Source of the DNA: a bacterium
GTDB taxonomy: Bacteria > Pseudomonadota > Alphaproteobacteria > Rs-D84 > CACZYB01
Direction of reading: 5' to 3'
DNA length: 64,000 nt
NCBI GenBank assembly: GCA_014803575.1
Contig: JAAVBO010000003.1
Location: 87,165-151,164 of the forward strand
Shown: positions 4,534-50,128 of the stretch, one piece after another
Numbering within the stretch: position 1 is the first letter of the stretch
Layout of the letters: every line of letters starts with the position of its first letter
Program-made: the position numbers and the translations under genes
The notes under the pieces: model-generated
Told to the model about the DNA's origin: nothing
The model's input: the letters and a program-made list of their open reading frames with translations, nothing else
Databases searched by the model: none

Positions 4534-4545
4534 TCCCCTTTTTTA
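4521..4545. terminator. Bidirectional terminator between convergent genes
   Basis: gggg-aatagt-cccc hairpin followed by a T-run. Confidence 0.5.
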
Positions 4546-5502
4546 TTTTGCAGTTTTAAGCATATTAACCCGCCATTTATTTCTGTCTTTACCTATTTGA
4601 TCTGATGTGCATTCTTCTGCTGCTTTTTTCCAATCTCTTGCTCTTATTGCCTTAAAAAATTCGGGCCAACCATCGCTTCCTGTTTCTTTTTTATCTTTAT
4701 CATTCCCGTCGTGAAATCTTTTACCCATATTATATTCCATATCCAATAGAACTTTTTTTACATTATATGGATAAGAGAGAAAATCTTTAAATTTTGCTTT
4801 AACTTGATCTAAATCTTTATATAGATGGTCTTTTACTTTTTCATTTATTTCTTCCTCTCTTATTATTAAATAATCATCACGTTTATATTTCTCTGCTTTA
4901 TAATTATATGGTTTATTCTTTGGACCATTTTTTCCCAGCTTGTTACGTGTTGTTATTATTTTATCATATTCTTCCATCTTTCTTTCATCTGTTACCTCTA
5001 TTTCGGTTTTCGGATCAACTAAATTTAATTTTACCATATCTTCTTTTTTTGCTATCATATTTCCTGCACCTATTGTTACATTTCCCTTTGTATCTGCATA
5101 CCCAAATGTTTTAATGTCTTCAAGTTTTTTTATTTCTTCTTCCATTTCTGGTAATAAATGGGTATATAGTTTCTTTTCAATTTCTCTTTCCCATTCTTTT
5201 ACTTCCATTGATTCCCTACTAAACATAGGGTGTTTTGGTGGATGAAGTTCTCTTTCACCGTTTGGTTTTTCATATATTAAATCTCCCCATATAGTTTTAT
5301 CAGCATCTTTACCAGACCAAGGTCGTTGAGTTAAATAGTCAGGTGCAAGACCTGAAACATCCTTTACTATACATCGACAATTAGGATGTGGTTTTTCCGG
5401 TACATCTTCAATGTTTGTATATTCAGTTAAATGTAAAGCTTTGCATGTATCACAAGATTTTCCTCCGTTGTCCGCAATCCAGATATAATTTACTTTTTTC
5501 AT
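4543..5502 (-). CDS. Fusion of a MuF-like Cys-motif module to a GH24 (T4-type) lysozyme; no signal peptide
   Basis: N-terminus SCDTCKALHL...HPNCRC resembles the conserved C-terminal motif of phage Mu F / SPP1 gp7 proteins. C-terminal half is lysozyme-like: E-x7-YADTKGNVTIGAG ... RDWKKAAEE...NKWRVNML. Start moved to MKKVNYIW at 5502, which has an aaggaaa RBS. Confidence 0.55.
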   Translation of the reverse strand: MKKVNYIWIADNGGKSCDTCKALHLTEYTNIEDVPEKPHPNCRCIVKDVSGLAPDYLTQRPWSGKDADKTIWGDLIYEKPNGERELHPPKHPMFSRESMEVKEWEREIEKKLYTHLLPEMEEEIKKLEDIKTFGYADTKGNVTIGAGNMIAKKEDMVKLNLVDPKTEIEVTDERKMEEYDKIITTRNKLGKNGPKNKPYNYKAEKYKRDDYLIIREEEINEKVKDHLYKDLDQVKAKFKDFLSYPYNVKKVLLDMEYNMGKRFHDGNDKDKKETGSDGWPEFFKAIRARDWKKAAEECTSDQIGKDRNKWRVNMLKTAK

Positions 5503-5534
5503 TTTATTTCCTTTTAAGTTATTAAATAAAAAAA

Positions 5535-5558
5535 GGACTAGTGTAGATACACTAGTCC
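5535..5558. promoter_or_regulatory. Perfect 24-bp palindrome (candidate operator) in a divergent intergenic region
   Basis: GGACTAGTGTA-GA-TACACTAGTCC lies between the divergent genes 4543..5502(-) and 5861..7309(+). Confidence 0.4.
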
Positions 5559-5860
5559 CATTGGTTAAAAAACACCATACCATAATTTAAAGAAGGATTT
5601 ATTAAAAGATAAGGACCTTGTACTATATATTGAAAAATAAGGTCAAAAATAAGGACCGTTTTTTTCTATCGGTCTATAAATCCTATTATATATTAAAATA
5701 GGAAATAATACAAATAAAAAAATATGTTATCATCTATTTGATAATACAGAAATATTTTAATTTGATTGTCTTTTTTATATAAATTTTCCATTTACAACAA
5801 AAACAGCAAATAAAAAACGGTCGTTTAAATTGAACAATTAATGAAATAAAAGGAGATAAA

Positions 5861-7309
5861 ATGAATAGAAAAGATATTCTTAATAATTTAGACCATGCGT
5901 TGGGTGAGTATAAATCTGCACAGTTGTTTGTAGATAATGAAGATAATGCTCAATATATAGTAAATATTGTTAAAAAAATTGATGCTCTTTATTACGGATT
6001 ATTTGATGGAATTGTGGCACCGAGTTATGCTTATGTTTCTAAAGATAAGGTAATGAAAGATAGACATGCCTATGATGCTGATTATGAAAGAGCTAAAAAA
6101 TATGCTGATGTTTTTAGGGGATTTGTTAATGATGTTGAGGTTAAAAAAACTTTTTCTTTGATAGAATCTTTGAAAAAAGAATTACAAAATACAAAAGACG
6201 GTATAAAAGGTGGTATAAATGGTATAACGGAAGGTTTTATTGATGCTTTTGTGAAATTGAAATATGCTTTGGGAGATTTGTTTGTTGATGTAGTTGGTGA
6301 GGGTGTAGAAATTGTAATGAATATAATGGAGCTTGTTGATACATTAGAAAATAAAATCTCTGAGGTTTTATATAATGCCTATAAAATGCCTTTGCACGAA
6401 TCTAAACTACCAGAAATTGAGACAAATAGTCATAATTATTATTATTATCCAGTTGATTCTTCATTAAGAAAAATAAGAATTGATTTTAGGGATAAACTTA
6501 ACGATTTTTATGCTCATAAATTAAACCATGCAACAAAGCCTGCTGACTTTTATTATGGAATTAAGGGGTGTCATTTTCATTTTATTAAACAACATAAAAT
6601 GGATCACAATGAGTGGTTTCATGCTTTTCAGATGGAGAGGGATGGATATTACGTACCTGATACTAATGAGTTCTATAATGAAGAAAATTTTTATTCAAGA
6701 CTCATTGAAAAAATTTTTGCCCTTATACCATATAAAGAAGAGCATATGAAATCAAAATTACCATTGAAAATTATGGAAAATATTTTTGAATATGCAGAAA
6801 TCTTGAAAAAAAACAGATTTAAAACAAATTATGATGGAAAGCAAGACTATGAAGGTCAAAAAAAAGTATATATTTGTTTATTGGCAAGTATTGTTGGAAC
6901 TTTCTTAACGCCTGCTATACTAAGATCACCTAGAGCAAATATGGAGTTTAGGACATCTTTGAGTGTTGAAGAATTGACGGATAATTTTGAAAAAAATCTT
7001 TCAAACCTTAAACAAATTGCTTCAAAACTATCTGAAAAAGAGAAATTGACTCCGGTTGAAAAGGATATTTGCAGTAAGTTAAGTGTGTTGGATAACAACT
7101 TATTTACTTATGACTGGGCTACTGAGATAAATAAAGATTATGATAAGGCAAAATTTAAGGAAGCAAAAAGACTTGCAAAAAATAATGACAGGTATAAAGA
7201 TGCCGAGTATATTCTTGCAGTAAGGAAGTTGCAAGCAAAGTATTTGGGTATGGAATACGATGAAAAGCTTGCTGATGGAATTGCAAAAAGAAAGTTATTA
7301 GAAAAGTAG
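5861..7309 (+). CDS. Hypothetical protein
   Basis: 482-aa ORF with RBS ggagataaaATG. No signal peptide and no recognisable domain. Confidence 0.45.
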   Translation: MNRKDILNNLDHALGEYKSAQLFVDNEDNAQYIVNIVKKIDALYYGLFDGIVAPSYAYVSKDKVMKDRHAYDADYERAKKYADVFRGFVNDVEVKKTFSLIESLKKELQNTKDGIKGGINGITEGFIDAFVKLKYALGDLFVDVVGEGVEIVMNIMELVDTLENKISEVLYNAYKMPLHESKLPEIETNSHNYYYYPVDSSLRKIRIDFRDKLNDFYAHKLNHATKPADFYYGIKGCHFHFIKQHKMDHNEWFHAFQMERDGYYVPDTNEFYNEENFYSRLIEKIFALIPYKEEHMKSKLPLKIMENIFEYAEILKKNRFKTNYDGKQDYEGQKKVYICLLASIVGTFLTPAILRSPRANMEFRTSLSVEELTDNFEKNLSNLKQIASKLSEKEKLTPVEKDICSKLSVLDNNLFTYDWATEINKDYDKAKFKEAKRLAKNNDRYKDAEYILAVRKLQAKYLGMEYDEKLADGIAKRKLLEK

Positions 7310-8452: not shown

Positions 8453-8597
8453 TTTTATATTCCTTTTTTATTCTTATTTCACATATAGAATATAATTCCA
8501 TATCGAAATAAAAAGTCAAAATCAGAATATTGAGTATTTTTATTTAAGTATTTATATTTACAGATGAAATTAAGGAATTTTAGCGGGCAAAAAAAAC

Positions 8598-8611
8598 GTT
8601 CGTTATTTTTG
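8598..8611. repeat. Left arm of a 14-bp perfect inverted repeat (gttcgttatttttg)
   Basis: The partner is at 8751-8764 (caaaaataacgaac). The arms bracket a 139-bp segment containing the poly-C tract and a promoter. Confidence 0.5.
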
Positions 8612-8698
8612 CACGGTGCGATTCGTAAAGTTTTTAGCTATATTTTAATGTAAAAAATATCCTTAAATAGAATTTTATTTAGTAAAATCAATCATTTA

Positions 8699-8707
8699 CC
8701 CCCCCCC
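8699..8707. repeat. Homopolymeric C9 tract (candidate slipped-strand phase-variation site)
   Basis: Nine consecutive C in a roughly 28% GC genome. It directly abuts a TTGACT -35 hexamer upstream of the glycosyltransferase operon. Confidence 0.6.
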
Positions 8708-8736
8708 TTGACTTTTATTCCAAATTGGTATATTTT
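8708..8736 (+). promoter_or_regulatory. Sigma70-like promoter (TTGACT-N17-TATTTT) facing the glycan operon
   Basis: TTGACT at 8708-8713, a 17-nt spacer, then TATTTT at 8731-8736. Hexamers were read by eye in AT-rich DNA. Confidence 0.35.
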
Positions 8737-8750
8737 TTTATTGTTCATTA

Positions 8751-8764
8751 CAAAAATAACGAAC
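8751..8764. repeat. Right arm of the 14-bp inverted repeat
   Basis: Reverse complement of 8598-8611. Confidence 0.5.
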
Positions 8765-9000
8765 ATTAAAATTGAACAGTATTACTAATATGGGGAATAT
8801 ATTATCTGCAACAACAAAACATTATCAATTATATATTCCTCTCTTTAAATTAAAAGGTAAAAAATGGCAACAGAAAAGAGTAATAACGAATTAAAAGAAT
8901 TTTACATAGAAAACAATGTGTCTGATGAGGAATTAGCTGACTATTTATATTCACTACAAGATAATAACAAAGTTGTATCAATAAGATTGGAGAATAAGTA

Positions 9001-23589: not shown

Positions 23590-24072
23590 ATGTTAATAAG
23601 AAAAAATGATTCCGGACGTTCCATAGTTGAAATGCTTGGTGTCTTGGCTATTATGGGTGTTATCACTGTTATGGGTATTTCCGGTTATTCCCAAGCAATT
23701 GGAAAAATCAACAGAAATAAAGTTGTTGAAGATGTAACAAGAATCGTTCAAGAGGTTAGGGGACTTTATGCCGGTAAAACTGATGTTTATACAAAGGTTC
23801 CTGCTGGATCGGAAACTGATGATTTGTTACTTTCCATTGGATTTAGAAGATCATCTGATAAGCATCCGTTTGGTGGTGTTTATTACATATCTCCTGCGAC
23901 TGAGGAAGATAGCGGTGCAAAAAGATATTTCAATGTTAATATTACAGGTTTGGATAAACAGGATTGTTTCTATCTATGTACATCTAATTGGGAAGGAACA
24001 CACGAAGATTGTGATACTACTAAGGCTTGTGGTTCAGATAGTGACAATACTTTGGCTTTATCATTTGAATAA
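23590..24072 (+). CDS. Type IV pilin / pseudopilin-like protein
   Basis: Class III leader with a processing site G|RSIVE (Glu at +5), followed by the hydrophobic helix MLGVLAIMGVITVMGISGY. Strong RBS aaggagaagagaATG. Confidence 0.65.
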   Translation: MLIRKNDSGRSIVEMLGVLAIMGVITVMGISGYSQAIGKINRNKVVEDVTRIVQEVRGLYAGKTDVYTKVPAGSETDDLLLSIGFRRSSDKHPFGGVYYISPATEEDSGAKRYFNVNITGLDKQDCFYLCTSNWEGTHEDCDTTKACGSDSDNTLALSFE

Positions 24073-24135: not shown

Positions 24136-25503
24136 TCAGAATCGTTGGTTAAGTGTCATTTCTATGGCACTTTTTTCATATTCGTGTTGCCATACGTTGG
24201 AATTTTTATCTGTGTAGGTATAAGTAATGGTTGGCGAGAATCCCCAAAAACTTAATTTTCTGTTTGATAGAGATAATGAGTATTTTCTTGTAATATCTTT
24301 TTCTTTTATTTCTTCAAACTTTAAGTTTTTTACAAACCATCTTTCCTTATCATAATTTGTGTATAATATGGAAGGTTCAACATACATTGTGAATCCGTAT
24401 GGAAGTTCTATGCCAAAACCTATTGCATAGCTGTTTCTTGTATTGGAATAAATTCGTTCCTTTGTATTTTCAATTTCATATCCTGTTCTGAAAATTAAAT
24501 ATTTTGAGGCATCGAACATATATGATAATCTGGCATTAATTCCGCGAGTATCTCCATCCAAAATTTCGCCATAATCATCATATCTTGTTGGCATATAAGA
24601 AAGAGTTAAACCTCCGGATAGACTTCTTGTAAAATCATAACCGGTATTTATTTTTAATCCGACTGCGTAGCTGTAAGGTTGGTGGGCAAGCCATCTTCTG
24701 TATGCGGAAGGTCCAGCAAAAATTTCTCCATTTTTCCAAACATATTTTGGACCGAAATTATAACTTAAATAAAGATCGTCATATTCTTTTTTATTGTATG
24801 TATTTGAATAAAGCATAGCTTCATTTCTTAATCGCCATTTATCATTAATTAAAAATTCATAACTTCCGCCGAGGGAAACATTAAAACCTATGGCTTTTTC
24901 TTTATCTGATAATTGATTACAAAGTACGCCCCACATAGTCATAATACATTGTTCGCCACCGGTTGCGTTGTTGATATTATCATCCGGTGCGGCGCCGATA
25001 TTAAACCAGATATTCCAATTTTTGTTTTGTCGTGCGACATAAATATATTTTGCGATTTCTTGTTTTACAGGTGGAGGAAGAGTTTCGTCTGTTGCTGCTA
25101 ATCTTAAATGATAATCAGCTCTGTACCATGATTTTTGTAGCATATAAAGTTGTGCGAGTTTGAATCTTATTGATGATATATTTGGTTGGTAATCAAGGAT
25201 GAATCTTAAAATTTCAATTGCATCATCTATACGATTTTCAAGGGTTGCGATTTCAGAGAGAAGATATAGACGTTCTATTTCCAATTCCTTTACATTGAAA
25301 GGAGATTTTAGAAGTAGTGTTTTTGCACTGTCATATTCTTTATTTTTAATAAATTCTTTTGCTAAATTTATTATTTGTATGGGATTTAATTTGATAATTT
25401 TTTCAGAAGTTTCTGTATCGGGAATAGGAGTAATTTCCTCTGCCTTAATATCAAAAGATATTAAGGAAAAAATTACTCCTATGACTATAATAAATAACTT
25501 CAT
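24136..25503 (-). CDS. Outer-membrane TPR plus beta-barrel protein resembling Slam (surface lipoprotein assembly modulator, DUF560)
   Basis: Signal peptide, then an N-terminal TPR-like region, then a C-terminal region of alternating aromatic beta-strand patterns ending in a terminal Phe (LNQRF). The NWNIWFNIGAAPDDNINNA segment matches the DUF560 barrel start as I recall it. Confidence 0.55.
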   Translation of the reverse strand: MKLFIIVIGVIFSLISFDIKAEEITPIPDTETSEKIIKLNPIQIINLAKEFIKNKEYDSAKTLLLKSPFNVKELEIERLYLLSEIATLENRIDDAIEILRFILDYQPNISSIRFKLAQLYMLQKSWYRADYHLRLAATDETLPPPVKQEIAKYIYVARQNKNWNIWFNIGAAPDDNINNATGGEQCIMTMWGVLCNQLSDKEKAIGFNVSLGGSYEFLINDKWRLRNEAMLYSNTYNKKEYDDLYLSYNFGPKYVWKNGEIFAGPSAYRRWLAHQPYSYAVGLKINTGYDFTRSLSGGLTLSYMPTRYDDYGEILDGDTRGINARLSYMFDASKYLIFRTGYEIENTKERIYSNTRNSYAIGFGIELPYGFTMYVEPSILYTNYDKERWFVKNLKFEEIKEKDITRKYSLSLSNRKLSFWGFSPTITYTYTDKNSNVWQHEYEKSAIEMTLNQRF

Positions 25504-25625
25504 TTAATTATAATTAACGTTTTTTTGATACATATAATTTATATCTGAAATTTATGTATGTCAATAAAGTCTCAACATTTATTTCTCAATAAAATTAATC
25601 AAAAAAACGTCTCCCTTTTTTTTTG
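25504..25625 (-). promoter_or_regulatory. Intergenic module, copy 1 (inverted relative to copies 2 and 3), with TTGACA-N17-TAAATT oriented toward the Slam gene
   Basis: On the minus strand the -35 is at 25564-25559 and the -10 at 25541-25536; the Slam start codon is at 25503. The reverse complement of this region aligns with 27064-27184. Arm sequences are degenerate (aacgttttttt / aaaaaaacgtc). Confidence 0.5.
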
Positions 25626-27035
25626 TTACTTACGTTTTGCACCGAATATGATATCCCAGTAAGTTGCACCTTTCCATGTTTCTTTACCAGAATTATCGTA
25701 ATCAGTCCATCCCCAACCGCCAGAATATCTTCCAACTGCTTCAGAAGGATCCTTATCAGCACCATAATATGCAGTTAATAAAGTCTCTGAATCCGGATAC
25801 ATAGGATATATTGTACCGTCTTCATCTTCATGTATAAAATGTTCTTTTGTATAATAGTCGAACTTTTTACCATCAGCTGTATATTCTGATGAAATATCAT
25901 CACCTTCTTTTGTTACAGTAACATCATACCAGTTATTAAATTTGAAATTTGCTACTTCTTTCATTGTTGCACCCGGTGTGACAGTAAGAGATACAGTTCC
26001 ATCTAAATCCATATAAGCAAGATCTTGTTCGTTGCTTGTAAGATTATAGCTTTCATCCATAATGTTACCCAAAGCACGACCTTCAAATGTGAAATTATCA
26101 GTTATATTTTCAATTTTTCTTTTTTCATTTCCGCCAAAGAAAAATACGGTTGCACTTTCTTTATTTTTGTAATCATTTACAAAATTATCCTTCATCATAC
26201 CGAATTGAGCATAGGATAGTTCCATACTGTCACCGCCAAGGGTAAGTTCGTATGTGTGATTTCCTTTTTTCTTTTCTCCTTTAAGAAGACCGGTATTATC
26301 TTTTCTAAGGTCGGATAATTCAAATTCTAAATCCTTTACATTTATGCCGTTTGCATCTATTTTTATACCTTTCGCATTACCATTTTCATCAACAGTAAAT
26401 TGTATAACACTGTCTTCTTGTTCTATATTAGATGGGAATTTGAAATCTTTTGAAAGATCATATTTTACTGCTGTGAATTTATCTTTATTTTCTGTTATTG
26501 CAGTTTTTATATCTTCGGCTTTTTCAATAATAGAATCTATAATATTGTCAGCTTTTGCGATTTCGTTTGCAATTTCTTTACCAACAAAAATAGTTAATCC
26601 CTGTGTAATAGCTGTTTTGAAAATGGTTTCATCTTCTAACTTTTCTGTAATAGTGTTTAAGATTTCTTTATCTACATTTATCCAATTTGCATAAATTTGA
26701 ATAAGATTATATTTTTTTTCTGTTTCGCTTAGTCCTGTTGCTTTTGCGGATTTAGAAGTTGCATTTCTTGCATTTGAATAATTAGATGCAGAGGCAGTTA
26801 AAGATTCATTTACAGATACAATTTTATCATAATTTGATGTATCAATAGGAGCCCCAAGCTCTTTTTCTGCCATAGCAACAATTTCTTTTTTATTATCTGA
26901 TTGAACAGAGAATGAAGAAACTGTTGTAGTAGGCAAAGTTGTATTTGGAACGGAGTTTCCGCCACCGTTACCACCACCGCAAGCGGTAAGTATGGTTGAT
27001 AGAGCGATTAAGCTTATTTTTAAATTATTTTTCAT
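25626..27035 (-). CDS. Putative surface lipoprotein, paralog 1 (TbpB-like C-terminal barrel; candidate Slam substrate)
   Basis: Lipobox LTAC, a GGGNGGGNSVPNTTLP linker, and a C-terminal FKFNNWYDV motif. The protein ends in IIFGAKRK, matching the TbpB C-terminus (...VVFGAKRQ) as I recall it. Confidence 0.55.
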   Translation of the reverse strand: MKNNLKISLIALSTILTACGGGNGGGNSVPNTTLPTTTVSSFSVQSDNKKEIVAMAEKELGAPIDTSNYDKIVSVNESLTASASNYSNARNATSKSAKATGLSETEKKYNLIQIYANWINVDKEILNTITEKLEDETIFKTAITQGLTIFVGKEIANEIAKADNIIDSIIEKAEDIKTAITENKDKFTAVKYDLSKDFKFPSNIEQEDSVIQFTVDENGNAKGIKIDANGINVKDLEFELSDLRKDNTGLLKGEKKKGNHTYELTLGGDSMELSYAQFGMMKDNFVNDYKNKESATVFFFGGNEKRKIENITDNFTFEGRALGNIMDESYNLTSNEQDLAYMDLDGTVSLTVTPGATMKEVANFKFNNWYDVTVTKEGDDISSEYTADGKKFDYYTKEHFIHEDEDGTIYPMYPDSETLLTAYYGADKDPSEAVGRYSGGWGWTDYDNSGKETWKGATYWDIIFGAKRK

Positions 27036-27063
27036 ATTAATTTCCTTTCAGTTTTTTATATTA

Positions 27064-27184
27064 GTCAAAAAAAAGGTACGTTTAAATTGACCGATTTTAT
27101 TAAAAAATAAACATTAGGATTTTATTGACATACACGAAATTAGGATATAAATTATATATGTCAAAAAAAAACGTACCTTTTTTT
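27064..27184 (+). promoter_or_regulatory. Intergenic module, copy 2: 16-bp inverted-repeat arms flanking a TTGACA-N17-TAAATT promoter that currently points antisense
   Basis: The arms are aaaaaaaaggtacgttt (27067-27083) and aaaaaaaaacgtaccttttttt (27163-27184). The -35 is at 27125-27130 and the -10 at 27148-27153, both on the plus strand. Confidence 0.5.
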
Positions 27185-27226
27185 ATCACTTTATTACTGA
27201 ATGAAACTACTCCTTATTTGTTAAAG

Positions 27227-28738
27227 TTATTTACGTTTTGCTCCGAAGACTGATTCAAACATATATTCTGTTCCTTCAATCTCATCGCGGAGATGTAATC
27301 TTCCAACAACTTCTTCTAATTCATTCATATCACCATAATACTCATCTTCAATGAAGTGATCTCTCTGATTGAAATCTATTTCTTTAAATTTATTAAAATC
27401 TCCATATATGTCATCTCCCGTTAATGTAATTTGACCATTGTTATAGTTGACATCATAGAAATTATCAAATTTAAGATTTAAATTTTTATTTAGGGAATCA
27501 TCTTTGAATGAAACGGTTAAATCAGCATTTCCATTAAGTATGAGTGCATTTTTACCTTCGATACTAGCGGTACCAATAGCTTTTCCTGTAAATGATATTT
27601 CATTATTATCGTTTAATACATACACAAGCTCATCTTTGGATGCGATAAGTTTTTCTTTGTATCCGCCAAAGAAAACATCAGAAGTTTCTGTATGAGGTAA
27701 TTCAACATTATTATCAGGATTATTGGATAGTGGACGGTTTGCCGATAATATTGTTTTATATAATGATCCAAAGTCAGAGTATGATAGTCCAACGGATTTT
27801 CCCCCAAGGATTATTTTATATTGATAATTGATATCAACTCCATCATCTTTTATATCACTAGAATCATATTCATTATCATCACTAATTTTATTTGCAAAAT
27901 CAATTAATCCTGTGTCTTTATCATAAACATAATATTTATAAGATTCCGTTTGATTTTTTTCTCCTATAATAAAGCCGTTTTTATCTTCTTTGAAATCATT
28001 AATATCAAAATCTATTGTTAAGTCTGTATCAAATTCATCTGATGGATTATTACGTTCATTATGTTCATAATGCATTCCTGTGACTTTATTATCCTTCACT
28101 GTATACTTAAATATGTTACGAGTTGTTGCATATTGATCATCTTTATTATCGGATAATTCTACAGTTGCAAGAGAAAATGTTTCTAATGTAGCTTGTTTTT
28201 TAATATCCTCGACATCTCCTGATATATCACCAATAGTTTCAAAAGTTGATTTTATGTTGTCATCTGTTAACTTTTCTACTATATCGTTTTTGTTTATAAG
28301 TTTTAGGGCATCAATAAATTTTTGTTTGTTTTCCCTTAAAACTTCTTCTGATTGGTCAGCCAAATTTTCAAGGACATCTTTCAATTCGTCGACATAACTT
28401 AATTTTACTTGGGCTATGCGATATTTTTTTTCGGCATCAGTCAAATTTTGGGATGAAACTTTTGCATTTGAAGTTGCACTTCTGTTTGGATTGTTTTTAT
28501 GAATTGCTTCGTATTTAGAAGCTACTTCTTCTGTGTATTCGGCGACATCTATTTTACCAAGATGTCCTTCAACATAATCAATAATATCTGATTTATTATC
28601 TACACTTGTTTTCATAGCGGTTATAGTTTCTGCACGTGGTAAAGTTGTATTTGGAACGGAGTTTCCACTTCCACCACCACCGCAAGCAGTAAGTAAAGTT
28701 GATAGAGCAATTAAGCTTATTTTTAAATTGTTTTTCAT
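27227..28738 (-). CDS. Putative surface lipoprotein, paralog 2
   Basis: The true start is MKNNLKISLIALSTLLTAC at 28738; the ORF-track start at 28837 runs through the upstream module. The protein ends in SVFGAKRK and has a KFDNFYDV motif. Confidence 0.55.
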   Translation of the reverse strand: MKNNLKISLIALSTLLTACGGGGSGNSVPNTTLPRAETITAMKTSVDNKSDIIDYVEGHLGKIDVAEYTEEVASKYEAIHKNNPNRSATSNAKVSSQNLTDAEKKYRIAQVKLSYVDELKDVLENLADQSEEVLRENKQKFIDALKLINKNDIVEKLTDDNIKSTFETIGDISGDVEDIKKQATLETFSLATVELSDNKDDQYATTRNIFKYTVKDNKVTGMHYEHNERNNPSDEFDTDLTIDFDINDFKEDKNGFIIGEKNQTESYKYYVYDKDTGLIDFANKISDDNEYDSSDIKDDGVDINYQYKIILGGKSVGLSYSDFGSLYKTILSANRPLSNNPDNNVELPHTETSDVFFGGYKEKLIASKDELVYVLNDNNEISFTGKAIGTASIEGKNALILNGNADLTVSFKDDSLNKNLNLKFDNFYDVNYNNGQITLTGDDIYGDFNKFKEIDFNQRDHFIEDEYYGDMNELEEVVGRLHLRDEIEGTEYMFESVFGAKRK

Positions 28739-28766
28739 TTTGTTTCCTTTCAGTTTTTTTATATTA

Positions 28767-28886
28767 GTCAAAAAAAAGGAACGTTTAAATTGACCTATTG
28801 TATTGAAAATAAATATTAGGATTTTATTGACATACACGAATTTAGAATGTAAATTATATATGTCAAAAAAAAACGTTCCTTTTTTT
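28767..28886 (+). promoter_or_regulatory. Intergenic module, copy 3: arms with a compensatory T-to-A change and the same antisense-pointing promoter
   Basis: The arms are aaaaaaaaggaacgttt and aaaaaaaaacgttccttttttt (ggaacg/cgttcc, versus ggtacg/cgtacc in copy 2). The -35 is at 28827-28832 and the -10 at 28850-28855. About 90% identical to copy 2 over ~170 bp. Confidence 0.5.
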
Positions 28887-28900
28887 ATTACTGAATGAAA

Positions 28901-30001
28901 CTAGTCTCTTTTCAATCCAAATGCGGCGTTGAAGTCAATGATGGAAATTCCAGGTCTGTTTTCATCTTTGAAATCATTACCTGTATATTCTTCACCATCT
29001 CTCATAGCTTCTATGATTTCCATACCGCCACCGGCTTCAACAACTGTGTTTGTTAAATCATCATAATAGTAGTTAAGTGTAAAATTATTTAGTCCGCCGA
29101 GAGCATTTTTTTCTTCGCCGTTTTTAAATTTGAAAAGGTCATCTTCTCCTGTGAATTTTTCAAATTTTACATTAACATCAGATTCACCAAATTTGTCAGT
29201 AACAACTACATCATACCAATTATCAAAATTCATTGTTAAAGTAGATGTTGGGTTTGCTCCATTGTCAAAATGAAGTGTTGCTTTACCGTCAAGATTTATA
29301 TTACCTTCTTTGGAACCTTGATTTGCAATGTTTTCTTCGGCACTTACTCCTCCAATTGCTCTACCGGTAAAGTCAATAGATGCGATGTCTTTTTCAATTT
29401 TATCCGGAGAAATTTCTCTTTCTTTATATCCGCCGAACACACCTAATTGATATTCATCTAAGTCATCACTTTCTTCTTTTGGTATATACTTACCGTTTTC
29501 ATCAGTACCATATTCAATAGATTTACCATTTAGGCGGAAGAAGTCAAAATAACTTAAACCAAGTTCTTTTCCCATTGATTCAAAGGTTAGTTCTTGATAC
29601 ATCTCATGATCTCCTTCTGGACCATCATAGATAAATTTATTTTCATTATTTCTTTTAAATACTGTTTCTCCGTTTTCATCAGAAAAAGATACAATTTTTC
29701 CATTATCATCTACGTTGAATTTAAAACTCGAATTTTCACCTTCATCAAATACAGTAAATTTTATGTCGCTGATATCAGCATATTGTTTAGCACGTGATGT
29801 TGATGTAGCGGATCTTACGCTTTCGGGTTTTTCCTTTGTAAGGTCAATACGACTTTTCAAAGATGTTATTTGTCTGTTGGATGCTTCGACAGTAGTAGGC
29901 AAAGTTGTGTTTGGAACGGAGTTTCCGCCACCATTACCACCACCGCAAGCGGTAAGTAAAGTTGATAGAGCAATTAAGCTTATTTTCAAATTATTTTTCA
30001 T
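28901..30001 (-). CDS. Putative surface lipoprotein, paralog 3
   Basis: The same MKNNLKISLIALSTLLTACGGGNGGGNSVPNTTLP N-terminus, a C-terminal MNFDNWYDV motif, and an ending AAFGLKRD. Confidence 0.5.
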   Translation of the reverse strand: MKNNLKISLIALSTLLTACGGGNGGGNSVPNTTLPTTVEASNRQITSLKSRIDLTKEKPESVRSATSTSRAKQYADISDIKFTVFDEGENSSFKFNVDDNGKIVSFSDENGETVFKRNNENKFIYDGPEGDHEMYQELTFESMGKELGLSYFDFFRLNGKSIEYGTDENGKYIPKEESDDLDEYQLGVFGGYKEREISPDKIEKDIASIDFTGRAIGGVSAEENIANQGSKEGNINLDGKATLHFDNGANPTSTLTMNFDNWYDVVVTDKFGESDVNVKFEKFTGEDDLFKFKNGEEKNALGGLNNFTLNYYYDDLTNTVVEAGGGMEIIEAMRDGEEYTGNDFKDENRPGISIIDFNAAFGLKRD

Positions 30002-30047
30002 AGTAATTTCCTTTCATTAGTTTATTATTATTTACTTTGTGTTAAAT

Positions 30048-31607
30048 TTATTGACGTTTCGCACCGAAGACATATTCTAAACTTGTGTTTATTTTACCTT
30101 CCTTATCTTTATATTCTATAATTCCACCACCAACTGCTTCTGTTGGAGAGTGTGCATTTTCACCATAAAGATTTACAAAACTTGATTGATTTGTTGAATT
30201 ATTAAGCATATCAATAATCATTTGATTTTCTAAACTTCCTATATTATCGTAAAATTTAGAATCTTCTATTTTGTTATATCTTATATCATATCCTCCACTT
30301 ATAAAATGTCCATCTGGGGCAATTGTAGTATTTGGTGAATATACTACTTCTTCTTCATATTTTGGAGTAATATTCATACTAATTCCGTTGTCCCAATTAA
30401 CATTTAAAGATGTTGTTGTGTTCATATTTGAAAAATGAACATTTAAAGATGTATCTCCTTGTAAAAATTTATCTATTCCAGATACATTTAAATTACCGTA
30501 TGCTTTACCTTTAAATGTTACATCTCCTAATTCATAAGATTTACTTATATCATAGAATGGAAATAATAAAGCACTTTGATTTTTTTCATTAAATCTGTTT
30601 TGATTTGTATTATATCCAAGTGTTGCCAGATAATGGTTTGACGATTTATTATTATCAACTTGGATATAAGTAAAATCAGCGTATGATAATCCTACGGATG
30701 TTCCTCCTAAAATAATTTTGTAATTATTTTTATCATCAGATGTTTTTATTATTTTATTCCCATCTTCATCTATTATATCATCTTTGTTAAAAGTTATGGT
30801 TTTATTTGTTATATCAGAGTTAAATGACAAACTATATATATCTCCATTACTGTCAGTATTATATTTTAAAGTAAAACTTTCATCATCTCTTAATGGAGTA
30901 AACTGTAATTGATCTATACTTATGTCTTTATAATTATTTTCAATAAAATCAAGTCGTTTTGTATAGTATGAGGGATCAAATGCGTAAATAGTTGCATTTT
31001 TATTTAAATTTATAGTATCTACTATCATTTCAACACTATTTGAATACTTTATGAAATTATTCATGTCATCTTCTGTTATTATTTTTCCATATTTAGTTTC
31101 ATATAAATATTTAGTAACCCTATTTTGAAAATCAACCATTCCAAGAAAAGCTTCACTATAAATTGTATTAAAATAAACATAATTATAAAGAAATTCGTTG
31201 ATAAAATTTTCATCATTTTTTGATATTTCTTCTAATTGTTCTAATCCATTATCTTCTAATGCTATTTCGACATGTTTTCTAATATAGTTTATATTATCTA
31301 TTAATTTTTTAGTTATTGTATCTATTATTTCATCTTCTGATAATGAATTGTACTTATCATCTTTAATTAAAATATCATAAGTATTTTTATCCAAGAGTTC
31401 ATCGTGAACATTTTGGAACCATGTAGAATTTTTTACAGTTTGAAAAGCATTAGAATTTGATTTTATTGAAATCTTTGCTGAATTTGTATCAGAAATTGTC
31501 GGTAAATTTGTATTTGGAATAGAACTTCCGTCACCACTTCCACCACCACCGCAAGCAGTAAGTAGGGTTGATAGAGCAATTAGGCTTATTTTAAAATTGA
31601 TTCTCAT
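30048..31607 (-). CDS. Putative surface lipoprotein, paralog 4 (first gene of the array)
   Basis: MRINFKISLIALSTLLTACGGGGSGDGSSIPNTNLP N-terminus and an ending YVFGAKRQ. It lies 46 bp upstream of paralog 3. Confidence 0.5.
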   Translation of the reverse strand: MRINFKISLIALSTLLTACGGGGSGDGSSIPNTNLPTISDTNSAKISIKSNSNAFQTVKNSTWFQNVHDELLDKNTYDILIKDDKYNSLSEDEIIDTITKKLIDNINYIRKHVEIALEDNGLEQLEEISKNDENFINEFLYNYVYFNTIYSEAFLGMVDFQNRVTKYLYETKYGKIITEDDMNNFIKYSNSVEMIVDTINLNKNATIYAFDPSYYTKRLDFIENNYKDISIDQLQFTPLRDDESFTLKYNTDSNGDIYSLSFNSDITNKTITFNKDDIIDEDGNKIIKTSDDKNNYKIILGGTSVGLSYADFTYIQVDNNKSSNHYLATLGYNTNQNRFNEKNQSALLFPFYDISKSYELGDVTFKGKAYGNLNVSGIDKFLQGDTSLNVHFSNMNTTTSLNVNWDNGISMNITPKYEEEVVYSPNTTIAPDGHFISGGYDIRYNKIEDSKFYDNIGSLENQMIIDMLNNSTNQSSFVNLYGENAHSPTEAVGGGIIEYKDKEGKINTSLEYVFGAKRQ

Positions 31608-31640
31608 TTTTTTTACCTTTCATTAGTTTTTATTTGTTCA

Positions 31641-31660
31641 AAAATAATGATCGTTATTTT
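31641..31660. repeat. Near-palindromic A-tract/CG-core element (aaaataatgatcgttatttt)
   Basis: 17 of 20 positions match 31817-31836 (aaaataacgatcgttttttt), which has a perfect AACGATCGTT core. Confidence 0.4.
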
Positions 31661-31816
31661 AGGTATATACTTTTTTTTAGAAAATTAATTTTATTTTTTA
31701 GAGAGTTTTAAAATTTAAACGACGAAATTATATTGAATAATCAAATAGATAAATAATCAGTAAAAATATTGCTTGAAAATATTCTTATCCAAATATAAAA
31801 TATTTTTGATTGTTCC

Positions 31817-31838
31817 AAAATAACGATCGTTTTTTTTT
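31817..31838. repeat. Palindromic A-tract / AACGATCGTT / T-tract element
   Basis: Partner of 31641-31660. Together they bracket ~155 bp upstream of lipoprotein paralog 4. Confidence 0.4.
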
Positions 31839-31856
31839 ACCGATATTTTTTTTATT

Positions 31857-40222: not shown

Positions 40223-40834
40223 ATGACAATATATACATATTTAAGGGTATCAACAGACAAGCAGGATTATTATAATCAGCGGGTTGGAATTATTGATTTT
40301 TGTAATAAAAACGGATGGAAGATTGATAAAGAAATTATTGATGACGGTGTTAGTGGTGTAAAGGAACCTATTAACAGAAAACTTGGTAAATTATTAAAAG
40401 AAATAAAATGTGGTGATATTTTGGTGGTGTCGGAAATTTCACGGTTGGGAAGAAAGCTTTTTATGCTTTTTCGCATACTTGAAAATCTGCTTAATAATGG
40501 GGTTAATGTTTATTCCGTGAAGGATGGATATTCTCTTGATAATTCTATACAAAGTAAGGTGTTGGCGTTTGCTTTTGGAATGGCGGCTGAAATAGAGCGT
40601 GATATGATTTCGCTTAGGACGAAGGAGGCTTTGGCTAAAAAAAGGAAAGATGGAGTTGTCCTCGGACGACCAAAAGGTAGAAAAAATAAAAGGTTGAAGC
40701 TTTGTGATAAGGTTGAGGATATAAGGTATTTGTTGGATTTACAGATTCCGAAAATAAGAATTGCAAAAAAATTGAAAGTTTCAAAAAATACTTTGAATAG
40801 GTTTATTAAATTATATGATATAAAAAAATGTTAA
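40223..40834 (+). CDS. Small serine recombinase (Hin/Gin invertase / resolvase family)
   Basis: YLRVSTDKQ catalytic-Ser motif, GDILVVSEISRLGR and GRPKG motifs, and a C-terminal HTH (IAKKLKVSKNTLNRFIK). 203 aa. Confidence 0.85.
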   Translation: MTIYTYLRVSTDKQDYYNQRVGIIDFCNKNGWKIDKEIIDDGVSGVKEPINRKLGKLLKEIKCGDILVVSEISRLGRKLFMLFRILENLLNNGVNVYSVKDGYSLDNSIQSKVLAFAFGMAAEIERDMISLRTKEALAKKRKDGVVLGRPKGRKNKRLKLCDKVEDIRYLLDLQIPKIRIAKKLKVSKNTLNRFIKLYDIKKC

Positions 40835-44255: not shown

Positions 44256-44916
44256 TTACTTTGCACCCATACTTGAAAGCTCTGATTTCTCATCATTATT
44301 ATTGGCTTTCACAAAGCCGTAATCAAAGAAAATGCTTGGGCTGAAATCACGCAAAAGTATATTCTGACTTTTAAAAATATCGCTCATGCTAAACTTCAAA
44401 TCGTTCCTTATGTAAAAACCGCTGTCCCCCGGTAATACCATCATTGCTAAATCCACGAACGGAGGCCTCACTTCCAATATAAAATCCGTCGGAGGAGAAA
44501 AGTTCATCACGGCTGTATTGCCCGTCAAATGTAGTTGCCAAATTTACAAAACCGAAATTAAATTCCTTGTCAATATAGGCGTTTGTGATAGTGTTAAGAA
44601 GTTTGTTTATCTCATCTACGGTCAAGCATTTATTAAGAAAAGGTTTTGCAAGTTTGTTGATTTCGCCAGAGGAAAGTTTTGTATTCCCATCAAATTCAAT
44701 GCTGTTGATTTGAACGCAGTGTGATGATTTTTGAGGGGCAGTTTCCTCCTGTTGTTGAGGTTGTTGTGTTACGGGTTTTGTGATTGCTCGTTCAAGCTCC
44801 TGCCTTCTAAATCCCGCATCAATTAATTGTTGTTGTGAACGTTGAATTTGTTCAGGAGTTTGCGAAAACACTACCCTCGCACAGAATACAAAAATAACTA
44901 AAAATACCTTTTTCAT
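44256..44916 (-). pseudogene. Remnant of a TpsB (ShlB/FhaC-type) two-partner-secretion transporter, truncated and frameshifted
   Basis: Signal peptide plus a POTRA-like region (VQINSIEFDGNTKLSSGEINKLAKPFLNKCLTVDEINKL). Only ~260 aa span two frames. No TpsA gene is nearby. Confidence 0.45.
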
Positions 44917-45297
44917 AATGGGAAAATTATACTATTTGCGATTTTTAATGCAAGGGGAAAATTGAAAGTAAATCGGTATTTATATTTTGTTCTTGACTTT
45001 TTGGAGAAAATGTAGTATTTATATATAAATCGTGAATAATAAATGAAAATAAAGCTTCGTAATGTGTGTATTGAATTTTATTGATATTAAAACTTTTGTT
45101 AATATCTCAACTCCACTTGTAATAAATTGTTTACAAGAAATGAAAGGAGAAATTATGGGAATATTAATGAGAAGTGTAGAGTTGTACCTATTGCTGTGGA
45201 GTATATGATATTTACATATATTTTAATATCTTTTTCTTTATATACATAGAAGAGTCAATAGGAGATAATTTTATATTATCTGACTCCACACCATTTT

Positions 45298-45966
45298 TTA
45301 ATCAGGAAAGTTCTCAATAAAATCTTTAAGTTCTTCGAGTATAATAAAAGCATTTGTTGTTGGATTATTTAAGTCTATTTCTTTATTATCAATAATACAG
45401 TGTTCTTTCCTAATTTTTTTAGCGTTTTCAATTGCTATTGATATATTATTTTGCATTTTAGAAAAATCTAATTCTTTTTCATAATTTAGTAAATATTTTT
45501 TTAATTTACAAGGACAGTCATCTTTAGATATTTCAGTTGGACAATATACAAAATGTAATAATGCCCAAAATTCTATATTAGGAATACTATATATAAAATG
45601 TATACCATGTTCTTTTGCTTTCTTTATAGCGTTTTGTAATTTAGTTTTATGAGCATTAGTTGTTCTATCATCTTCATCAATTACAACAAAAACTTTATCA
45701 TGTTCATTTTTATCTTTAGTTTCTTCAATTGCTCTATCAGTTAATTTTTCACAATCTTGATCACTTCCTGGTCTTGGAATATCTATTTGTCCCAAAATAG
45801 TTCTTCGTTTATTTTCGTTATCAGGATAAATTTCTCTTACAAGAAAATTTTTTAAATCAGTTAAATATTTTGATTCTGTAACTTTCCCTTCAACAAAAAA
45901 ATCAACACGGGGTCTTTGAATTTTGAGTTTGTTAAAATATTGATCTCTTTTATTTTTTTTAGGCAT
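45298..45966 (-). CDS. RloB-like (TOPRIM-like) protein, partner of the AAA_21 ATPase (AbiLii-like)
   Basis: N-terminal motif RVDFFVEGKVTESKYL (an EGxxTE-type motif) and an IEFWALLHF motif, both recalled as typical of the RloB family. Confidence 0.6.
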   Translation of the reverse strand: MPKKNKRDQYFNKLKIQRPRVDFFVEGKVTESKYLTDLKNFLVREIYPDNENKRRTILGQIDIPRPGSDQDCEKLTDRAIEETKDKNEHDKVFVVIDEDDRTTNAHKTKLQNAIKKAKEHGIHFIYSIPNIEFWALLHFVYCPTEISKDDCPCKLKKYLLNYEKELDFSKMQNNISIAIENAKKIRKEHCIIDNKEIDLNNPTTNAFIILEELKDFIENFPD

Positions 45967-45968
45967 TA

Positions 45969-47330
45969 TTATTCATCCATTAATTTTTCTAATTCTCTAA
46001 TATCTCCTAGAAAGGGAATTGCTCCAAATCTACCTTTTAAATAACCGGATTCATAATCATAATTATTTCTTATATCTTTGAATGATGATAATGGATAAAC
46101 TGTTGATACTCCAGAAATATCTTTTTCTATAAACCAAATTTCATCCCGTCTTAATATATCACTTTTTAATAAATTAACATCATGGGTTGTACATATAAGT
46201 TGAGCTCCACCTTTGTTTATCTTTGGATTATTAAAAGCTTGAACCAATCTTTTAACAAGAATAGGATGTAGAGATCTTTCTATTTCATCACAAATAAATA
46301 TTCCACCATTTATAAAAGCAGGATAGAACATAATTATTTTACTTAAAAAAGCTAATGTACCGTCACTTTCTTGATTATTACTTAAAGGATATTCATTACC
46401 ATCTTTACCAATATGATAGTATTTTAACTGATAATCATATTTTGGAGGTTCAAAATTTTCTATTTGCACACTTTTAAATTTTGCAGTTATTTTTTTATTA
46501 AATATATCAAATAATTCCTTATTAAGAGATTGTGTTTCTTCATCAATTTTAATTTGTTCTATTTCAAATCTAGAAATACCTAAATCAATAGAATTAAGCC
46601 ATTGACTAATTTTATTAATTTCTCGCTTATTATTATATAATTCTACTAATCTATTATCAGGAATTTGAAATTCATTACAGAAGATAAAACATTTATTAAA
46701 AAACTTATGTATTCTTGTATAAGGAATTATATTTCTTTTTGTTAATAGTTCTAAGACTAAAACATCTTGTCTTTTAGATATAGTATCCTTAATATAATCT
46801 TTATCATAATTAGAGATATCACTGTCCTCATAAACTATATTTCCATTTTCTCTATTGTATAGTATTTTATTATTAGATGTTAAAGTTTCTGTTTTTATAA
46901 TTTGTTTGTTAAATATTAATTTATATATTATAATTTTCTTATCTAAGAAAAACTCAAATTCGAGAAGAGAATCTTTAGATTTACTTTCTTCATCAAGGAT
47001 GAAAGGAACATATGCAGATAATTTTGATAAATTTTTTTCTGAATTATTTAAAAATTGTTTCATTTTTAAAAATAATGATAATAATTTAGATTTACCAGAA
47101 GCATTTGCTCCATAAAAAATAGAAACAGGTAATACTTTATCTTCATCTTCTTTTGTTTCTATTAAATTCCAAAATTCTTTTTGTGAAGAGAAACGAGTTT
47201 CTTCAGAAAATAAAATATGATTTTCATCTTTGAAAGAAAAATGGTTAGAAAAAGATATTCTAATTATATTAGATCTTTCTTTTTTCATAGTATATCTCCG
47301 AATTTTAGTTAACTGATATTTATAATACAT
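45969..47330 (-). CDS. AAA_21-type ATPase (AbiLi / RloC-like abortive-infection ATPase)
   Basis: Walker A GANASGKSK, ICDEIERSLHP (Walker B / D-loop) and LICTTHDVNLL (H-loop). 453 aa. It lies 2 bp upstream of the RloB-like gene. Confidence 0.65.
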   Translation of the reverse strand: MYYKYQLTKIRRYTMKKERSNIIRISFSNHFSFKDENHILFSEETRFSSQKEFWNLIETKEDEDKVLPVSIFYGANASGKSKLLSLFLKMKQFLNNSEKNLSKLSAYVPFILDEESKSKDSLLEFEFFLDKKIIIYKLIFNKQIIKTETLTSNNKILYNRENGNIVYEDSDISNYDKDYIKDTISKRQDVLVLELLTKRNIIPYTRIHKFFNKCFIFCNEFQIPDNRLVELYNNKREINKISQWLNSIDLGISRFEIEQIKIDEETQSLNKELFDIFNKKITAKFKSVQIENFEPPKYDYQLKYYHIGKDGNEYPLSNNQESDGTLAFLSKIIMFYPAFINGGIFICDEIERSLHPILVKRLVQAFNNPKINKGGAQLICTTHDVNLLKSDILRRDEIWFIEKDISGVSTVYPLSSFKDIRNNYDYESGYLKGRFGAIPFLGDIRELEKLMDE

Positions 47331-49578: not shown

Positions 49579-49687
49579 TAGTTTTTGTTCCATATATGAA
49601 CCTATACTTCCAAGCAGACAGGATACTTTGGAAACTTCGCGTCATCTTAATCTTTATTATGAAATTTATGTGAGTGAATGCAAATGA
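49511..49687 (+). CDS. o-spanin-like small lipoprotein overlapping the i-spanin-like gene
   Basis: MRKLKLKLVLIMLVLTSC has lipobox LTSC. The ORF overlaps the 49387 gene out of frame (Rz/Rz1-like arrangement), and its stop overlaps the endolysin start (ATGCAAATGA). Confidence 0.3.
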   Translation: MRKLKLKLVLIMLVLTSCTTEIDSFCSIYEPILPSRQDTLETSRHLNLYYEIYVSECK

Positions 49688-50094
49688 ATTCTTTGATAAA
49701 AAAGTATGAGGGATGTTTCCTTGTTGCCTATAAATGTCCGGCCGGTGTTTGGACTATTGGTTATGGAAATACAAATGTTGATGGAGTGCCTGTTTATGAA
49801 GGAATGAGTATTACACAGGATAGAGCGGAGGTACTTCTTTCTGAATGGATAGAAAATGAAGTTAAGCCATACATTTCCGACCTTAATTTAAAAGGAAAAC
49901 AGCTTGAAGCTATAATTTCCCTTGTTTATAATGTTGGAGGTCCGGCATTTAAAAAATCCAAACTTAGACAGGCAATACTTAACAAAGATTATGAGTCCGT
50001 GTGTCGCGAATGGGATTTTGGTTTTAAATCCAATCTTAAAGGTATATATAAAAGAAGGGTTGAAGAACTTTTTCTTTTCATAAGTGAAATATAA
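49678..50094 (+). CDS. Phage-type lysozyme (GH24 endolysin)
   Basis: YEGCFLVAYKCPAGVWTIGYGNT ... LVYNVGGPAFKKSKLRQAILNKDYESVCREW. A Cys occupies the position of the conserved second catalytic Asp (YKC versus YKD). Confidence 0.75.
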   Translation: MQMNSLIKKYEGCFLVAYKCPAGVWTIGYGNTNVDGVPVYEGMSITQDRAEVLLSEWIENEVKPYISDLNLKGKQLEAIISLVYNVGGPAFKKSKLRQAILNKDYESVCREWDFGFKSNLKGIYKRRVEELFLFISEI

Positions 50095-50095
50095 T

Positions 50096-50128
50096 CTCTC
50101 CCCATCATCATAGGTGGGGAGTTTTTTT
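50096..50128 (+). terminator. Terminator after the endolysin gene
   Basis: ctcccca-tcatcatagg-tggggag followed by a T7 run. Confidence 0.6.

Follow-up and report, generated by a model that had tools for sequence, protein, structure and literature searches.

An uncultured gut alphaproteobacterium (~30% G+C, known from metagenome assemblies only, one of them from human (Hadza) stool) probably turns genes for surface lipoproteins on and off by DNA inversion. The evidence comes from a 64,000-nucleotide stretch of contig JAAVBO010000003.1 (GenBank assembly GCA_014803575.1, forward-strand positions 87,165 to 151,164; the window), in which four paralogous lipoprotein genes, SLP1 to SLP4, lie in one operon with the gene for a surface lipoprotein assembly modulator (Slam). 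An intergenic segment of this operon, S0, was found in both orientations in different assemblies, and two modules located between lipoprotein genes, c2 and c3, share their recombinase target sites with this neighbouring flipped segment, which makes inversion control of the lipoproteins probable.

The efflux genes OEP, HlyD-type adaptor, ABC ATPase and MacB (to 31857) are followed by SLP4 to SLP1 and Slam, all on the minus strand and in that order. SLP1 to SLP4 have in common a signal peptide, a lipobox (LTAC-GGG) and a C-terminal FGAKR motif, and a family search gave no Pfam or PDB match for any of them. Their lipobox and position point to the four proteins as putative Slam substrates.

24136-25503, minus strand: Slam, surface lipoprotein assembly modulator gene (PF04575, E 3.7e-36)
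25626-31607, minus strand: block of paralogous lipoprotein genes, SLP1 (25626-27035), SLP2 (27227-28738), SLP3 (28901-30001) and SLP4 (30048-31607)

A segment at the head of the lipoprotein genes occurs in both orientations

S0 lies between MacB and the first lipoprotein gene, SLP4 (intergenic region 31608-31856), beyond the region singled out in a first-pass annotation of this DNA, which had proposed invertible promoter switches further downstream in the operon.

31635-31666: S0 arm beside the SLP4 start, TGTTCAAAAATAATG-AT-CGTTATTTTAGGTAT, core 31650-31651
31811-31842: S0 arm beside the MacB stop, TGTTCCAAAATAACG-AT-CGTTTTTTTTTACCG, core 31826-31827
31661-31816: S0 invertible segment, ~155 bp, in the opposite orientation in L021/L027 and L031
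31773-31801, plus strand: promoter-like TTGAAA-17-TAAAAT (consensus match)

Comparison of the window with the L021/L027 strain (ENA ERZ27276792; L021 1172-1418) showed that the S0 segment is 95% identical as the reverse complement and 56% identical directly, while both flanks are identical. The inverted segment of L027 matches that of a third strain type, L028, at 153 of 154 positions, indicating a recent inversion. A second independently assembled sample, L031 (ERZ23499746), has S0 flipped as in L027. The promoter-like element of S0 points away from SLP4 in the window (OFF) and into SLP4 in L027 and L031 (ON), and overall two assemblies were ON and five were in the OFF state of the window.

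Contig ends gave a second view of the same segment. The Logan contigs L034 and L035 both stop 18 nucleotides into S0, and their final 31-mer starts at the sole base that separates the left arm (AAC-GATCG) from the reverse complement of the right arm (AAT-GATCG). Logan graphs are built with k=31 (PMC12424806), and a break at that base is expected only if both junctions occur in the reads of the sample; both orientations of S0 were therefore present. S0 is thus the demonstrable switch of this locus, and a sibling of c2 and c3 in the same operon.

Another contig, L033 (SRR11425449_1880), stops 8 nucleotides into the segment, its final 31-mer starting just before the A9 run of the arm; this end fits heterogeneity in the length of the A-run (A9 vs longer, or AAAAAATAA in other strains) rather than inversion. 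In some strains SLP4 is absent (L002/L028 1239-1486, compared with window 30002-31856), and S0 then stands directly before SLP3. The junction in these strains falls within a shared ACTAATGAAAGG leader, which suggests that SLP4 was lost by deletion through recombination between similar 5' regions.

Ten related sites form five pairs with matched, pair-specific cores

Each arm of these segments is a dyad of ~32 bp, in which two A/T-rich half-sites of ~15 bp ending in [C/G]G (consensus TGTTCAAAAAAAACG) surround a 2-bp central core. A regular expression for this shape found nine sites in the window where 2.6 were expected, and eight of the nine are arms of the pairs listed here. Two diverged partner sites were added by inspection, giving five pairs.

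S1: cores at 5655 and 5820, AC and GT, spacing 165 bp
S2: cores at 8599 and 8762, TT and AA, spacing 163 bp
c2: cores at 27077 and 27174, TA and TA, spacing 97 bp
c3: cores at 28780 and 28876, AA and TT, spacing 96 bp
S0: cores at 31650 and 31826, AT and AT, spacing 176 bp

With a half-site weight matrix the ten sites scored 22-39 bits, compared with 10 bits for the next best position in the 64 kb. When the matrix was trained with one group left out, the left-out arms still ranked among the top ten of ~64,000 positions (5th to 9th for those of c2 and c3); the site family is therefore not a circular result. The first-pass annotation had read each arm as a dyad resembling the hix sites of serine recombinases, and this reading extends to the whole family.

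Serine recombinases exchange strands by way of a 2-nucleotide overhang at the centre of the site, and this core must match between partner sites but may vary from one site pair to another. Partner cores are reverse complementary in all five pairs, and the five pairs have five different cores. A match is expected by chance with a probability of 0.084 per pair, or ~5e-5 for four independent pairs. Cores of this kind are what serine recombinases are known to require. Within the inner 30 bp of the arms, c2 and c3 differ only at the core bases and at one base of the outer half.

Two modules inside the operon carry the same sites

c2 and c3 occupy the intergenic regions upstream of SLP1 and SLP2, respectively. 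Ranks of their arms are given among the ~64,000 positions of the window, using a matrix trained without c2 and c3.

27036-27226: c2 module, intergenic SLP1/SLP2
27062-27093: c2 arm beside the SLP1 start, 32-bp dyad TAGTCAAAAAAAAGG-TA-CGTTTAAATTGACCG, core 27077-27078, rank 6
27159-27190: c2 arm beside the SLP2 stop, TGTCAAAAAAAAACG-TA-CCTTTTTTTATCACT, core TA 27174-27175, rank 5
27125-27153, plus strand: c2 promoter-like TTGACA-17-TAAATT, alternatively TTGACA-N15-TATAAATT (consensus match)
28739-28900: c3 module, intergenic SLP2/SLP3
28765-28796: c3 arm beside the SLP2 start, TAGTCAAAAAAAAGG-AA-CGTTTAAATTGACCT, core AA 28780-28781, rank 9
28861-28892: c3 arm beside the SLP3 stop, TGTCAAAAAAAAACG-TT-CCTTTTTTTATTACT, core TT 28876-28877, rank 7
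28827-28855, plus strand: c3 promoter-like TTGACA-17-TAAATT (consensus match)

The two modules are direct repeats of each other (87% identity over 137 nucleotides, 93% over 87), and the similarity continues into the signal-peptide codons, consistent with an origin together with tandem gene duplication. Each has perfect 16-bp inverted arms (c2, 27068-27083 and 27169-27184; c3, 28771-28786 and 28871-28886). The sole difference between the 16-bp arms of c2 (GGTACG/CGTACC) and those of c3 (GGAACG/CGTTCC) is a T/A exchange at mirrored positions. The direct-repeat copies, their arms and the TTGACA-N17-TAAATT element were all described in the first-pass annotation and are all present; the compensatory change that it had reported is real, and coincides with the core dinucleotide of the site.

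TTGACA-17-TAAATT matches 10 of 12 consensus positions, and as such is a consensus match only. In c2 this element reads out through the arm at 27174 into the 3' end of SLP2, which would be the OFF state for SLP1, and in c3 it reads out into the 3' end of SLP3, the OFF state for SLP2. The antisense direction claimed earlier for these copies is thus confirmed for TTGACA-17-TAAATT, but c3 has a second promoter-like element besides, TTGACA-16-TAAATT on the gene-sense strand (28866-28839), formed partly by the recombinase half-site TGTCAA. The internal palindrome TTGACATA...TATGTCAA was also considered as an operator for Fur, Irr or another regulator; this reading was rejected, one palindrome half being simply the recombinase half-site.

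Outside the three module sites, the module core and arm motif had no further occurrences beyond chance in the 64-kb window. A search of 185,579 species genomes, a collection without this species, with the pattern TTTATTGACATACAYRAAWTT returned eight chance matches in unrelated phyla, and the arm pattern gave no match in JGI metagenomes, the organism having been seen in ENA and Logan data only. In the window and the collections searched, the module does not show as a scattered generic repeat: its three copies in the window all belong to one operon and matches elsewhere are those of chance.

A prophage-like element has integrated at an arm of c3

In one assembly, L029 (ERZ27277212, 12635-21050), a prophage-like element of ~8.4 kb lies between SLP3 and SLP2; it was also found in L039. 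Its left junction coincides with a contig end in another sample (L030/L040), so that this junction is present in two samples. The element encodes a replication-initiator-like helix-turn-helix protein, an endolysin, a serine recombinase of 202 amino acids and many small open reading frames (ORFs). The 202-amino-acid recombinase matches phrog_125 'DNA invertase' and, aligned from end to end, has 46% identity with the 203-amino-acid recombinase encoded in the window.

The attachment sites place the exchange within the arm. attL reads AAAAAAAGGAAC followed at the junction by ATTATTTTTGACC; attR reads ...TTTAATCCAAC followed by GTTTTTTTTTGAC (also given as ...AATCCAAC followed by GTTTTTTTTTGAC); and the empty site is AAAAAAAGG-AA-CGTTTTTTTTTGAC, so that the c3 arm beside SLP3 (28861-28892) is attB. 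Comparison of attL and attR with the empty site shows that exchange took place inside a shared AAC at the dyad centre of this arm. Reconstruction of attP gave a site with this core and a single good half-site. No free form of the element was found in viral contigs using the attP pattern and a protein search. The centre of a c3 arm has thus been the crossover point of a related recombinase, and the c3 arm is a recombinase substrate.

A chromosomal recombinase resembles the Mpi master invertase

40223-40834, plus strand: small serine recombinase, 203 amino acids, candidate master invertase, with the active-site motif RVSTDKQ

That this gene encodes a serine recombinase had been recognized in the first-pass annotation. 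Compared with NCBIfam, the protein matches NF009949, 'master DNA invertase Mpi family serine-type recombinase', far better than any other family (245.3 bits, E 4.5e-73), with residues 3-198 aligned to profile positions 2-196 of 203, and its best match among solved structures is the Gin invertase. The protein likely belongs to the Mpi family, at a score below the curated threshold. Every strain recovered has the gene in the same position, surrounded by housekeeping genes; S0 is ~8.4 kb away from it, and c2 and c3 are 11-15 kb away. No second recombinase, of the tyrosine type or any other, was found among the window's ORFs of 120 amino acids or more. From these features we infer that the 40223-40834 recombinase acts on the five site pairs.

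A third module copy is not an active switch

c1, the copy beside Slam, is oriented oppositely to c2 and c3.

25504-25625: c1, copy with interior flipped relative to c2 and c3 and with decayed arms, present in some strains only
25536-25564, minus strand: c1 promoter-like TTGACA-17-TAAATT, pointing into Slam

Its interior is the reverse complement of that of c2 and c3 (75% identity over 103 nucleotides, 82% over 65), and in alignments c1 was 64-66% identical to c2 and c3 flipped in silico at their cores, compared with 53-55% to the unflipped modules. It has an inverted repeat of its own, ACGTTTTTTTGAT/ATCAAAAAAACGT, and its arms score 5-6 bits compared with 22-39 bits for real sites: at 25516 the outer half is not a site, and at 25611 the core region, CG-TCTC-CC, is 2 bp too long. 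The first-pass annotation had counted c1 as a third copy of the candidate switch. The reversed interior and the promoter pointing into Slam were correctly noted, but the arms are not equivalent to those of c2 and c3 and c1 is not an active third switch; rather, it looks locked ON toward Slam.

The distribution of c1 bears on its origin. The window type and the L028 type carry it; the sister strain L021/L027 and four loci of more distant relatives (L022-L024 and L006/L007) lack it. Where it is missing, SLP1 and Slam are 4 nucleotides apart (L021/L027) or their stop and start overlap (L022-L024). On these comparisons, c1 would most simply be an insertion in the lineage of the window; no target-site duplication was seen at its ends. 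On the Slam side its similarity to c2 and c3 stops at the core (..ATCAAAAAAACG-TT-AATTATAATTAAATG), a breakpoint which suggests that c1 may have arisen by action of the recombinase on a pseudo-site. With its promoter fixed toward Slam, c1 would maintain expression of the exporter while the head switch S0 is OFF, which is the state of S0 in the window. In the strain lacking c1, S0 is ON; a correlation drawn from two strain types is a hint only.

Two further site pairs and a common promoter design

5640-5836: S1, candidate switch, cores AC (5655) and GT (5820), between the divergent genes 4543-5583 (minus strand) and 5861-7309 (plus strand)
8584-8778: S2, candidate switch, cores TT (8599) and AA (8762)

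S2 contains a promoter-like TTGACT-17-TATTTT at 8708-8736, with TTGACT-15-TATATT inside it, which reads into an operon starting at 9001 and encoding a glycosyltransferase, an epimerase and a UDP-glucose dehydrogenase; S2 currently points into this operon. The promoter-like elements of S0, S2, c1 and c2 share the geometry TTGAhh-N15-TATAwwwT, placed a few bases inside one arm and reading outward through it. This pattern has five matches in the window, where about one is expected, and four of the five lie inside S0, S2, c1 and c2. Searches of other assemblies with the proteins neighbouring S1 and S2 gave matches in the window's own strain only.

A C9 tract (~8699-8707) directly 5' of the -35 element of S2 could add control by repeat slippage. 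The divergent genes flanking S1 are of unknown function and its interior has weak promoter matches only; a flip of S1 could toggle between the two genes.

Proposed mechanism and alternative explanations

These observations can be accommodated in a model in which the Mpi-like recombinase 40223-40834 would bind each arm as a dimer, pair two arms, cut at the cores and rotate by 180 degrees, so that the intervening segment flips. When a switch is ON, the promoter abutting one arm would read across this arm toward the downstream gene; when it is OFF, the promoter would read antisense into the upstream gene, and S0, c3 and c2 would all be OFF in the window. With different cores, recombination between switches, and the deletion or inversion of whole genes that it would cause, would be prevented. 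c1, its arms ruined, would be a copy permanently in the flipped orientation, giving Slam a constitutive promoter independent of the phase of the operon.

We hold with moderate confidence that c2 and c3 are switches built from recombinase sites (invertons), active now or until recently; that they are active at present we consider a little less than an even chance. Our most extended proposal is more tentative still, namely that one Mpi-like invertase runs at least five switches addressed by their core dinucleotides, three of them nested in the Slam-dependent operon (at its head and before two internal genes), that a locked copy keeps the exporter gene on, and that one arm doubles as the attachment site of a prophage-like element encoding a related recombinase.

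Several findings weigh against this interpretation. With respect to the enzyme, the recombinase scores 245 bits where the curated cut-off of NF009949 is 272, and its action on the sites is a prediction from sequence. With respect to transcription, the promoter calls are consensus matches only, and a promoter scan counted 48 in the window and 42.9 in shuffled sequence; moreover, a promoter-like match in the gene-sense direction, present in c3 and in c2 of other strains, means that the ON/OFF logic is not clean. With respect to S0, orientation differs between strain types, which does not give the frequency of switching within one clone, and the contig ends fit clonal switching and a mixture of strains alike. 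With respect to c2 and c3 themselves, no assembly was found with either module flipped (predicted junctions, GTGATAAAAAAAGGTACGTTTAAATTGACC for c2 and CAGTRATAAAAAAAGGAACGTTTAAATTGACC for c3): each was in one orientation in 4 of 4 independent samples covering it, L026 and L037 being identical to the window and not counted as independent. A k=31 Logan contig, L003, spans c2 without the break expected of a mixed population. The core spacing of 97 and 96 bp in c2 and c3 is about half that of S0, S1 and S2 (163-176 bp), and so short a loop may hinder pairing of the two sites.

The points concerning c2 and c3 are those expected of the strongest rival explanation, that these modules are relics of a switch of the S0 type, fixed, for example, after an internal deletion left the sites too close together. 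The arms would then be at most a landing site for elements and the modules ordinary spacers. c1 shows that copies of the module can decay and become fixed. However, all four half-sites of c2 and c3 are intact and score as well as the arms of S0, and the arms are identical in three strain types, although overall divergence there is low. In addition, the cores of c2 and c3 have diverged in a matched way after duplication, as would follow from continued, or selected, recombination between partner arms. On balance we regard the relic explanation as the less likely of the two. The intact sites and matched cores, set against the single orientation, the short spacing and the gene-sense match in c3, would make c2 and c3 switches of unproven present activity. 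The invertible promoter switch of the first-pass annotation therefore holds as to the kind of mechanism, S0 having been found in both orientations and a crossover having occurred at a c3 arm, but flipping of c2 or c3 was not seen, and the evidence listed above does not bear out its prediction that such a flip turns on SLP1 and SLP2.

It is also possible in principle that the repeats act at the RNA level, as an intercistronic stem-loop in a polycistronic mRNA that sets stability, processing or partial termination. The gene-sense transcripts do fold better than shuffled sequences (z of -6.0, -4.6 and -3.3), and matched cores can equally be read as base-pair covariation. Such folding, however, follows automatically from repeats in the DNA, and the dyad within each arm is needless for an arm-to-arm stem. 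The same sites occur at S0, S1 and S2, before first genes or between divergent genes, positions that lack intercistronic RNA; strains differ in the physical orientation of the S0 segment, and a recombinase crossover took place at the centre of a c3 arm. An Rfam scan of the window found three tRNAs only, none in the modules, and the modules contain no terminator-like site (G+C-rich hairpin followed by a U-run). A role in RNA is accordingly very unlikely.

Least probable is that the module is a small non-autonomous mobile repeat, like a miniature inverted-repeat transposable element or a Correia element, bounded by terminal inverted repeats, carrying a promoter inside and inserted in both orientations: the insertion polymorphism of c1 among strains would fit, as would a donor other than c2 or c3 for a copy only 75-82% identical to them, but the module core occurs at three places in the window with chance matches alone in the species genomes searched (this species not included), c1 has no target-site duplication, tandem duplication together with the genes explains c2 and c3, and other members of the arm site family flank unrelated interiors.

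Other features of the locus

SLP1 is just 87% identical between strains whose MacB protein is identical, indicating that the lipoproteins are hypervariable. A 160-amino-acid protein encoded at 23590-24072 (plus strand), divergently from Slam, resembles type IV pilins at its N-terminus (GRSIVEMLGVLAIMGVI), matches nothing in Pfam and is kept in all strains. In a related genome, L008 (9596-10595), whose Slam is 65% identical, the lipoprotein gene downstream of Slam is broken into two ORFs at a G10 tract; this may reflect slipped-strand phase variation of a Slam substrate.

Further along the window, the region 44389-47330 contains a 175-amino-acid ORF with POTRA and partial ShlB/FhaC matches only, possibly a remnant, which adjoins genes for an RloB-like protein and an AAA_21 ATPase; the latter two resemble a defence gene pair. 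At 49678-51469, a gene encoding a lysozyme inhibitor of the LprI type comes after two genes with phage-lysozyme domains.

Comparison with known systems

The closest parallel is Mpi of Bacteroides fragilis, a single master serine invertase that acts on 13 promoter regions, among them the promoters of seven capsular polysaccharides (PMC4747536, PMC12632263). The recombinase described here has the Mpi family as its best match over the full length, and, as in that system, its gene stands alone, away from its presumed targets; short promoter-like segments bracketed by sites are dispersed before genes for surface structures, one of them a glycosyltransferase operon (S2); and the 64 kb contain five site pairs built on a single half-site consensus, all of them putative substrates of the one enzyme. 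The systems differ in that the host is a ~30% G+C uncultured alphaproteobacterium and not a member of the Bacteroidales, and the recombinase falls below the curated cut-off. They differ also in that a Slam-linked lipoprotein operon is targeted, with switches between genes inside the operon and two segments of only ~96 bp from core to core, and in that activity of the recombinase on these sites is predicted only. The Mpi repeat has the consensus ARACGTWCGT; compared with it, the S2 arm contains AAACGTTCGT, c2 and c3 contain AAACGTWCC, and the other arms are one or two bases off.

Similarities to the Hin, Gin, Cin and Pin invertases lie in the small serine recombinase (with Gin as its best structural match), in dyads of A-tract half-sites around a 2-bp core, in the matching of partner cores (5 of 5 pairs here), and in the crossover within AAC at the dyad centre in L029. 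Sites of the Hin and Gin type are 26 bp long, whereas those described here are ~32 bp; the segments are 96-176 bp in place of about 1-3 kb, and the recombinase gene is neither in nor adjoining an invertible segment, unlike the classic layout, which also includes an enhancer and Fis. The TA cores of c2 and the AT cores of S0 are palindromic, and in those pairs the core therefore cannot set the polarity of the site.

In Neisseria, Slam-dependent lipoproteins (e.g. hpuA) vary in phase by slippage of repeat tracts. Stochastic on/off expression of such surface lipoproteins would be common to both groups, the mechanism proposed here being promoter inversion and not homopolymer frameshift; given the G10 tract of L008, both inversion and slippage may exist in this clade. 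The literature searched contained phase variation of Slam substrates for Neisseria only, and none by inversion, so the present operon, if correctly interpreted, would be the first case within that literature of Slam-dependent lipoproteins controlled by DNA inversion instead of repeat slippage. If the nested arrangement of switches is correct, it would allow combinatorial display of antigens, and counts of S0 orientation in gut metagenomes would be a direct readout of the surface-antigen state.

Orthogonality of central dinucleotides is exploited in synthetic biology with the att sites of serine integrases. There, as here, partners share a core and pairs differ, which under one enzyme should prevent cross-recombination; the present case is natural, comprises five chromosomal switches, and is read from sequence. 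It would, if confirmed, be a natural example of pair-specific crossover cores that keep several switches independent under one enzyme, and it provides a simple rule for finding more switches in these genomes, namely to look for 32-bp dyads whose partner sites have matching cores.

Invertons have been catalogued widely, Proteobacteria included (PMC11602134). What would be new here is the phylum, the Slam-linked operon as target, switches inside an operon, pair-specific cores over five switches, and an element that uses the arm of a switch as its attachment site. Promoters under a master invertase are best known from the capsules of Bacteroides, and the locus described here would extend an Mpi-type system to never-cultured gut bacteria of a different phylum.

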